This document shows positions 44,607 to 46,025 of a DNA stretch of 64,000 nucleotides, piece by piece. Under the pieces are notes generated by a model. The model worked only from the letters and a program-made list of their open reading frames with translations, did no database searches and was not told the DNA's origin. The translations under genes were made by a program, and so were the position numbers. Origin of the DNA: an uncultured Gemmatimonadota bacterium. Lineage in GTDB: Bacteria; JAAXHH01. Position 1 is the first letter of the stretch. Each line of letters opens with the position of its first letter. The DNA lies in contig OX638340.1 in assembly GCA_951812955.1 (NCBI GenBank), forward strand, positions 3,456,001-3,520,000. Direction: 5' to 3'.

Positions 44607-45164
44607 ATGGGTTGGAAAGCTATCTGCCAACTTACGGGACCAATCCTGGCTGTCCTGGTCTTGACCGGTTGTTTGAGCGGCGAATCCGGAAATCCGTTTG
44701 AACTGACTCCAGAACATCTGCAAAAGAGGGAGATGCGGACCAGGATGTATGAAGGGATATCCGAGGTGGGTATGTTGTCCGCGTGTGCCGGAGTGCTGCA
44801 GGACCTGGGTTTCACCATCGACGAGAGCGAGTCAAAACTCGGTGTGATTGTCGGGTCGAAGAGAAGTGACGCGACGGAGGCGGGGCAGGAGGCCTGGTGG
44901 CTGGTAAAGGCGTTGTTGACTTACGGGTTGGCGGCACTTACGGACGAGACGGATGACTACCAGAGATTCCGGGCGTCTGTAGTCGTCCGTCCGGCTTCGA
45001 CGATTACATCAGAAAACCACTACGTAAGCGTGACCTTCCAGCGGACCGTCTGGGATACAGACGACAAAGTATCGAAACAGGAAACCCTGGAAGTGCCCGA
45101 AATCCACGGGGATTTCTTCGATCGGCTTTCGAAATCGGTTTTTTTGGAAGCCCAGGGTATCTAA
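44607..45164 (+). CDS. lipoprotein of unknown function (first of three tandem paralogs)
   Basis: Start MGWKAICQLTGPILAVLVLTGCLSGES. Conserved segments LSACAGVLQDLGFTIDESESKLGVIVG and C-terminus PEIHGDFFDRLSKSVFLEAQGI are shared with the two downstream copies. Confidence 0.6.
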   Translation: MGWKAICQLTGPILAVLVLTGCLSGESGNPFELTPEHLQKREMRTRMYEGISEVGMLSACAGVLQDLGFTIDESESKLGVIVGSKRSDATEAGQEAWWLVKALLTYGLAALTDETDDYQRFRASVVVRPASTITSENHYVSVTFQRTVWDTDDKVSKQETLEVPEIHGDFFDRLSKSVFLEAQGI

Positions 45165-45235
45165 TGCGCCGGATTTCGGTGACGTCGGTCGCCAACCGGT
45201 TTCTTCATCTTTCGGCCGTGTAGTTTGCGGTCCTA

Positions 45236-45598
45236 ATGATCACATGCTCCGAGGCTGATATGATCAGTAAGGAAGGACGGAAACTCAACCGGTTCCAACG
45301 TGGCCAATGTTTGATTCTTTTTCTGGCGTTTATGATCATGGCCGGATGCGGGGGCGGTGCATCGTTGGAAGCTTTCGTTCCGACGGAGGAAACGCTGCGG
45401 AAAAGGGTGCTGACCACCAGGCAGTTCGATGGTATTGCGGAAGCAGACCTTTTGTCGGCGTCTGCGGGTGTGCTTCAGGACCTGGGTTTTAACGTCGATG
45501 AGAAGCCATTCATTCAAAAAGCGTAGACGATCCGGAACTGTACGGCGAGTTCTTTGAACTGCTTTCGAAATCGGTATTTCTGGAAGGACAGAAACTAT
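45236..45598 (+). pseudogene. truncated paralog of 44607..45164 (internal deletion/frameshift; C-terminal part displaced to another frame)
   Basis: N-terminal lipoprotein signal (FLAFMIMAGCGGG) and LSASAGVLQDLGFNVDEKP are retained, then a stop at 45526. The conserved C-terminus (PELYGEFFELLSKSVFLEGQKL*) follows in a different frame (45530-45598). Confidence 0.55.
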
Positions 45599-46025
45599 GA
45601 AATTTGCCAGCACATTGACGCTTGTAGTCGCCGTCGGATTTGCGGCCAGCCTTGCGGGATGTGGCACGTCGAGCCGTCAGTTGACGGAAATGGAAGACAG
45701 TCAGGTCAATTTGCGGACCGTTCAGTCCCGTGCGTTCGACAGTACGGACAAGAACCGGATGCTAAGGACGGTGATCGCCACGCTGTAGGATTTCGGCTAC
45801 GTAATGGACAAAGCGGATGAAGAGCTTGGTGTGATTACAGCGACGAGACTGGACGGGGGAACGCAGAGAATAACGGTGACCGTTCGACCGAGAGGAGAGA
45901 CCCAACTGCTGGTTCGCGCTAACATGCTCCGTGGGCGGAGGGCTGTAACAGACCTCCTGGCCTATCAGAATTTTTTCACGTCGCTGTCCAAATCGATCTT
46001 TCTGGACGCGCACCTTGTCGAGTAG
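45597..46025 (+). pseudogene. third paralog of 44607..45164, interrupted by an in-frame TAG (amber) at 45786-45788
   Basis: MKFASTLTLVVAVGFAASLAGCGTS...RMLRTVIATL * DFGYVMDKADEELGVITATR...FFTSLSKSIFLDAHLVE. The CAG (Gln) of the paralog's VLQDLGF is replaced here by TAG. Both halves are in the same frame and collinear with the intact paralog. Confidence 0.6.

Follow-up and report, generated by a model that had tools for sequence, protein, structure and literature searches.

A conserved lipoprotein operon with two members probably inactivated recently in an uncultured Gemmatimonadota bacterium

A 64,000-nucleotide stretch of genome from an uncultured Gemmatimonadota bacterium (contig OX638340.1 of assembly GCA_951812955.1, positions 3,456,001 to 3,520,000 of the forward strand), here termed the window, carries an operon of four lipoprotein genes designated X, A, B and C. 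With a probability of roughly 0.75, it is a conserved envelope-lipoprotein operon in which two members, B and C, have recently been inactivated in one genome by three independent mutations. B would have lost a 231 bp segment of 77 codons between repeats and, as a separate step, one A of an A6 run, with a shift of frame that ends the protein at 88 amino acids. C would have gained a C-to-T change that converted the CAG codon of Gln64 to TAG. The phenomenon is one of ordinary gene decay; the decay may be recent, and no recent duplication lies behind it.

The operon begins with gene X (44003..44449, plus strand), which is intact and encodes a 148-amino-acid lipoprotein with the lipobox LTGC and a partial BamE/SmpA_OmlA domain. 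Copy A (44607..45164, plus strand), also intact, encodes a long-type helix-grip lipoprotein of 185 amino acids, again with the lipobox LTGC. Copy B is a remnant. Its first frame (45260..45526, plus strand) specifies 88 amino acids that comprise a signal peptide, the lipobox MAGC, the first conserved motif as far as GVLQDLGFNVDE, and the residues KPFIQKA before a stop codon. The 3′ tail of B (45517..45600, plus strand) lies out of frame and reads SVDDPELYGEFFELLSKSVFLEGQKL up to its stop; a tblastn search places it at 100% identity to residues 164-190 of the B protein of a close relative, L008. The stop of this tail overlaps the start of copy C (ATGA), which is a short-type helix-grip lipoprotein gene of 142 codons (45597..46025, plus strand) with the lipobox LAGC and is broken at codon 64. 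An earlier sequence-only reading had described three related plus-strand lipoprotein genes at 44607-46025, and every element of that description is present there.

All four proteins display a hydrophobic N-terminal signal peptide and a lipobox, the combination by which bacterial lipoproteins are recognized as substrates of signal peptidase II. Judged from the translations against the pattern [LVI][ASTVGM][GAS]C, the lipoboxes are ILTGC in X, VLTGC in A, IMAGC in B and SLAGC in C. The lipobox Cys is invariant in alignments of both A-type and C-type proteins.

Intact relatives provide the reference against which the lesions were read. Protein searches returned 724 homologues of A and 1975 of C, in none of which a Pfam domain was found. 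Intact 142-amino-acid orthologues of C are 99%, 96%, 96%, 95% and 93% identical to the C of the window, and all of them carry Gln at the site of the TAG codon. The locus L008, which is the source of the 99% identical protein, shows 96-97% DNA identity to the window across the operon, and a second close relative, L009, shows 94%. Both encode intact X, A, B and C, the last with 142 amino acids, and the A proteins of the window and L008 are 98% identical. The B orthologue has 190 amino acids in L008 and 173 amino acids as called in L009, where the frame also spans the full ~190 amino acids from a start aligned with that of L008. B and C of the window thus each carry disabling changes where close relatives have full-length genes. 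Because a genome with 96-97% identity retains A, B and C in intact form, the lesions are recent and specific to this strain.

A base-level alignment of the window with L008 displays exactly three disabling differences, two in B and one in C. The sequence-only reading held that the second copy had lost its centre and changed frame. Both parts are true of B, as two separate lesions and not as a single event. The first is an in-frame deletion of 231 bp, or 77 codons. Its junction, located with overlapping BLAST segments and a global alignment against L008, is the 12 nt sequence ACGTCGATGAGA at 45492..45503 (plus strand), which matches L008 both at 4664-4675 (ACGTCGAAGAGA) and at 4895-4906 (ACGACGAAGAGA); the deleted segment is thus bounded by imperfect direct repeats of 12 nt, a signature of slippage or illegitimate recombination, which is the likely mechanism. 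In terms of the modelled structure, the deletion is predicted to remove almost the whole β-sheet, and it is very probably a real feature of the organism. The second lesion is the loss of one A from a run of six, which leaves the A5 run at 45516..45520 (plus strand); L008 has A6 at this site and L009 has AAAATA. This loss of 1 nt shifts the frame, whereupon a TAG at 45524-45526 is entered two codons on and the product terminates at 88 amino acids.

The third lesion is the in-frame TAG of C at 45786..45788 (plus strand). Here the earlier reading stands as it was made: the third copy is collinear with the intact gene, in one frame throughout, and has TAG where the intact gene has CAG. The difference is a single C-to-T transition. 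The codon is CAG (Gln64) in relatives, as seen in the DNA alignments of L001, L003 and L008, and forms part of the invariant motif TLQD(F/L)G. Gln64 is invariant in 50 C-type sequences and the equivalent Gln65 in 49 A-type sequences, and Gln occupies this position in every orthologue and paralogue examined. In the structural model of C, the first core helix spans residues 52-65, and the TAG is located at its end. The 63-amino-acid product would retain no more than the signal peptide, the linker helix and this first core helix. Since all four main β-strands and the C-terminal helix would be lost, the helix-grip domain is predicted to be unable to form. The TAG is itself probably real, with a confidence below that placed in the deletion.

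A competing account attributes the TAG in C, and possibly also the A-run loss in B, to errors of sequencing or consensus, or to minority alleles that the assembler fixed; the organism would then have an intact C, and of the three lesions only the 231-bp deletion would be real. Several observations speak in its favour and weigh against inactivation of both genes. The lesions are seen in one assembly only, and the truncated products (63, 73 and 88 amino acids) are likewise recorded from that single assembly; scans of Joint Genome Institute metagenome contigs for the CAG/TAG site were negative. Some long-read data frequently contain errors in the length of homopolymers. The change from A6 to A5 is one that a long-read consensus can get wrong, and a lone C-to-T difference could be a base error. 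Apart from the TAG, C is perfectly conserved and gives no indication of relaxed constraint, with a ratio of non-synonymous to synonymous substitution rates (dN/dS) of 0.08, which is equally compatible with an error and with a very recent mutation. Moreover, none of the other loci examined lacks C, and its loss with X and A intact is somewhat unexpected.

The quality of the surrounding sequence argues against such errors. Over the ~9 kb that can be aligned to L008 or L009, no gene contains an uncompensated single-base insertion or deletion other than the A-run loss in B. Long open reading frames cover ~90% of the window (~57 kb unbroken), the longest stop-to-stop frame has 2435 codons and others have 1852 and 1618 codons, and the stretch that contains B and C is the only place in the window where long open frames fail. 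The nonsense change arose within an ancestral CTGCAG, a hexamer of which the window has 23 unaltered copies; a systematic error at a methylated CTGCAG motif was considered and rejected, as these 23 sites are intact. The three lesions fall within ~300 bp of two adjacent genes, a clustering that appears unlikely for random errors: the chance that the second and the third lesion would fall in the same 800 bp is estimated at roughly (800/64000)^2, or ~1.6e-4. Finally, a repeat-flanked deletion of 231 bp cannot be a base-calling error. The account based on errors is therefore rated as unlikely, though it retains some weight, and we infer that the lesions are real in the organism and did not arise in assembly.

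Substitution patterns bear on the age of the lesions. Compared with L008, the C gene of the window has 8 synonymous and 2 non-synonymous changes, from which the dN/dS of 0.08 derives. With the nonsense change included, the product is altered by 3 of the 11 changes, whereas neutrality would predict ~75% (P for 3/11 or fewer = 0.001). The comparison of L008 with L009, both of which have an intact C, gives a dN/dS of 0.086. The values for A are 0.18 against L008 and 0.11 against L009. In the N-terminal part of B there are 2 synonymous changes and 1 non-synonymous change relative to L008. B evolves faster than its neighbours: between L008 and L001 its identity is 66% versus 80% for A, and its dN/dS is 0.44 versus 0.07-0.09 for A and C. 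The low ratio of C signifies that this gene was under normal purifying selection until very recently, and the same pattern would be expected from an error. These comparisons suggest that either the lesions are very recent or the point lesions are errors; given that the lesions are taken as real, the nonsense mutation in C would be very recent.

It had also been raised in the sequence-only reading that the TAG of C might be read through. In its wider form, this proposal is that the codon is decoded, whether by programmed read-through, a suppressor tRNA, pyrrolysine or near-cognate insertion of Gln, and that C is still made. The replaced codon is CAG, and the frame downstream of the TAG is fully preserved, as the proposal would require. 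UAG can be misread by the near-cognate tRNA-Gln, as is known from Escherichia coli, and this would restore the wild-type residue in trace amounts. However, TAG is an ordinary terminator in this genome segment. It is the commonest stop in the window, where it ends 10 of the 23 long open reading frames, and it also terminates C itself at the orthologous stop position. The site is not conserved as a stop: no orthologue examined has a stop at codon 64. A search with ARAGORN detected no tRNA gene in the 64-kb window, and leaky read-through would yield only trace protein. Given that TAG is the commonest stop and that Gln is found in every orthologue examined, decoding of the codon is very unlikely, and recoding proper was ruled out on stop-codon usage.

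Another proposal is that the lesions constitute a phase-variation switch of surface lipoproteins, or that the truncated products have acquired new functions. One of the lesions does lie in a homopolymer, and giant variable surface proteins are encoded in the neighbourhood. Against this, the A5 or A6 run is too short to serve as a contingency tract, and L009 has AAAATA in its place; a long and variable simple-sequence tract, as is typical of phase-variable contingency loci, is not what is found here. The nonsense codon and the 231-bp deletion are not reversible by slippage, and the truncated products are devoid of the whole β-sheet of the domain. A role of either kind is extremely unlikely, and inactivation of B and C by ordinary mutation is the reading followed below.

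The relatedness of the three copies, which the sequence-only reading had recognized from shared motifs, is well above what chance would produce. This holds for BLASTP, profile-profile and tblastn comparisons. A and C are 26-28% identical (BLASTP E = 6e-10), and the A-type and C-type profiles match with 99.7% probability (E = 3e-25). When the intact A protein is compared with the B remnant of the window by tblastn, the N-terminal part gives an E value of 1e-14 and the tail one of 6e-5. A and B are 45% identical, and B is 43-47% identical to any A-type protein. No further copy of any of the paralogues was detected elsewhere in the window by tblastn.

These same values show that the copies are not recent tandem duplicates. 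The orthologues of each gene in other genomes are 77-99% identical, and the copies within the operon are less alike than these. The duplications are old: A and C, at 26-28% identity, belong to two subfamilies that co-occur across phyla, and B reaches only 43-47% identity to A-type proteins. C, which occurs at all of the related loci examined, forms a subfamily of its own and does not serve as a redundant copy of A; B is an A-like paralogue, likewise old. The sequence-only reading had interpreted the triplet as paralog decay after tandem duplication. The decay is borne out, as B and C are disrupted here and intact in close relatives. Its attribution to the wake of the duplication is not, as the duplications long precede it.

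The operon belongs to a conserved arrangement that consists of a BamE-domain lipoprotein gene, one or two long-type genes and one to three short-type genes, in which stop and start codons often overlap (ATGA). The order X, A, B, C is found in L001 as in the close relatives L008 and L009, and the order X, A, C in two other relatives, L003 and L004. In the relative L012 (1314-2929), X, B and C are present without A, and C is 93% identical to that of the window. A 1.1-kb fragment from a further relative, L013, has B followed directly by C; its C protein is identical to that of L012, and the contig ends upstream of B. Two metagenome-assembled genomes from Gemmatimonadota and Latescibacterota (L005 and L006) have X, A and three C-type genes. 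The order X, A, C recurs in two Gammaproteobacteria, namely Thiodiazotropha (L010, 3023-4432) and a member of the Halieaceae (L011, 2999-4429). The module of X, a long-type and a short-type gene is thus conserved in Latescibacterota, Gemmatimonadota and Gammaproteobacteria. The gammaproteobacterial proteins are 70-73% (X), 54% (A) and 57-58% (C) identical to those of the window. Identities of this order are unusually high across phyla and hint at horizontal spread; they suggest that the module may have been transferred between phyla.

Relatives may have A alone, B alone or the two together. A and B therefore look interchangeable, and the loss of B in the window is unsurprising; it would be tolerated on account of this interchangeability. 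The hit in C is the less expected of the two, as C-type genes are found in every locus examined.

In Thiodiazotropha, the module adjoins a gene for Tae4, a type VI amidase effector, and a Shedu (SduA_C) defence gene (L010, 557-2675). This neighbourhood looks like a variable region or a defence island, and the other loci do not share it.

The A-B spacer is 95 bp in the window and also in L008 and L009; in L001 the start of B directly follows the stop of A. Within the spacer of the window there is a weak, terminator-like hairpin at 45184-45200. A scan for promoters and terminators yielded nothing that exceeded shuffled expectation.

Two large elements flank the operon. A segment of ~9.5 kb directly upstream (34222-43762) is without a counterpart in the 96%-identical L008, where its flanks are ~340 bp apart. 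It contains an open reading frame of 2410 amino acids (34537-41769) and a gene for a 551-amino-acid lipoprotein with leucine-rich-repeat and immunoglobulin-like motifs (41799-43454), and has the appearance of a strain-variable island of giant surface-protein genes. On the other side, a minus-strand gene (46815-52364), convergent with the lipoprotein operon and kept in all close relatives, encodes a protein of 1849 amino acids with repeated CARDB-like modules and a C-terminal reprolysin-like metalloprotease region. The Pfam assignments for this protein were transferred from its L001 and L008 orthologues.

Gene X is the only member of the module with a family match, and that match is borderline. 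Its product scores 22.7 bits against the Pfam BamE profile (PF04355), with a cut-off of 23.2, and three orthologues score 23.2-24.1; only positions 10-43 of the 71 in the profile are matched. X also matches phrog_3135, a family of unknown function, at E = 7e-8. The protein ends in VRDFAYHTSRF; from phylum to phylum there is hardly any variation in its final 25 residues, the C-terminal Phe among them. This C-terminus is reminiscent of the C-terminal signal of outer-membrane proteins. For A, B and C, scans of Pfam, NCBIfam, PADLOC and PHROGs gave no meaningful family, with no match to any Pfam or NCBIfam profile at E ≤ 1, and a literature search on lipoprotein pseudogenes found nothing relevant.

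AlphaFold models were obtained with a mean predicted local distance difference test (pLDDT) value of 75 for A and 80 for an intact C orthologue. Both display a signal or anchor helix and a linker helix, followed by a helix-grip domain with the topology β-α-β4-α. The A model has an extra helical insertion at residues 91-114 that is poorly predicted. Comparison with known folds gave figures of 10.6 for KA1 domains, 10.2-10.3 for Flpp3/DUF3568, 10.3 for DUF4468, about 10 for Bet v 1-like proteins, 8.7-9.1 for the N-domain of BamC (at 15-19% identity) and 7.2-7.9 for its C-domain. The modelled domains share the helix-grip fold with BamC.

The presence of a BamE-like lipoprotein beside BamC-like helix-grip lipoproteins suggests an outer-membrane accessory complex. 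By this analogy, a shared envelope role for X, A or B, and C is plausible, albeit at modest odds, and the products may act together in the cell envelope. It is proposed, tentatively, that X, a long-type protein (A or B) and C are subunits of an undescribed envelope lipoprotein complex, with X as a BamE-like subunit and the other two as BamC-like helix-grip subunits, that has spread horizontally between Latescibacterota/Gemmatimonadota and Gammaproteobacteria, with 54-73% identity retained, and is now being lost in this organism. The fold is very common, there is no link to BamC at the level of sequence, and the module coexists with the canonical Bam system in Gammaproteobacteria, all of which weaken the case for an outer-membrane accessory complex. 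If the module does form a complex that is being lost here, that complex would be dispensable in some niches.

Apart from any complex, B and C cleanly illustrate three ways in which mutation can lead to gene loss, and comparison with a near-identical genome dates these events as recent. The work also defines a module of BamE-domain, long and short helix-grip lipoproteins, with ~700 long-type and ~2000 short-type homologues and no curated family. Annotators gain a family to define, and the envelope module is amenable to testing in culturable Gammaproteobacteria.

One of the closest known systems is BamC (lipoprotein 34; PDB 2laf, 2yh6 and 3sns); the helix-grip genes described here adjoin a gene for a BamE-domain lipoprotein. 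The proteins differ from BamC in several respects. BamC consists of two domains and a long N-terminal segment that binds BamD, whereas the proteins described here have a single domain. Neither A, B nor C matches the BamC family (Lipoprotein_18/NlpB) in Pfam or NCBIfam at E ≤ 1, and profile searches of the PDB returned no BamC chain, with best matches at chance level (E 0.085-0.39). The module is also found in Gammaproteobacteria, which normally have their own BamC. A lineage-specific distribution of BamC and of the lipoproteins of the β-barrel assembly machinery (BAM) has been described (PMC3359395).

Flpp3/DUF3568 of Francisella (PDB 9nlt) and DUF4468 (PDB 4e6f) resemble the helix-grip proteins in fold, but identity is only 7-12% and there is no profile match to these Pfam families. 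As the function of both is also unknown, the resemblance says little about mechanism.

With respect to the lesions themselves, the comparison is with ordinary bacterial pseudogenes, and here the likeness is close. Intact orthologues exist in a genome 96-97% identical, the remnant has kept a high similarity to the functional gene, and a repeat-flanked deletion, a homopolymer indel and a C-to-T nonsense change are the three classic types of disabling mutation. There is no difference in kind. What sets this case apart is that two adjacent paralogues have been hit at once, and that they belong to an unannotated family.
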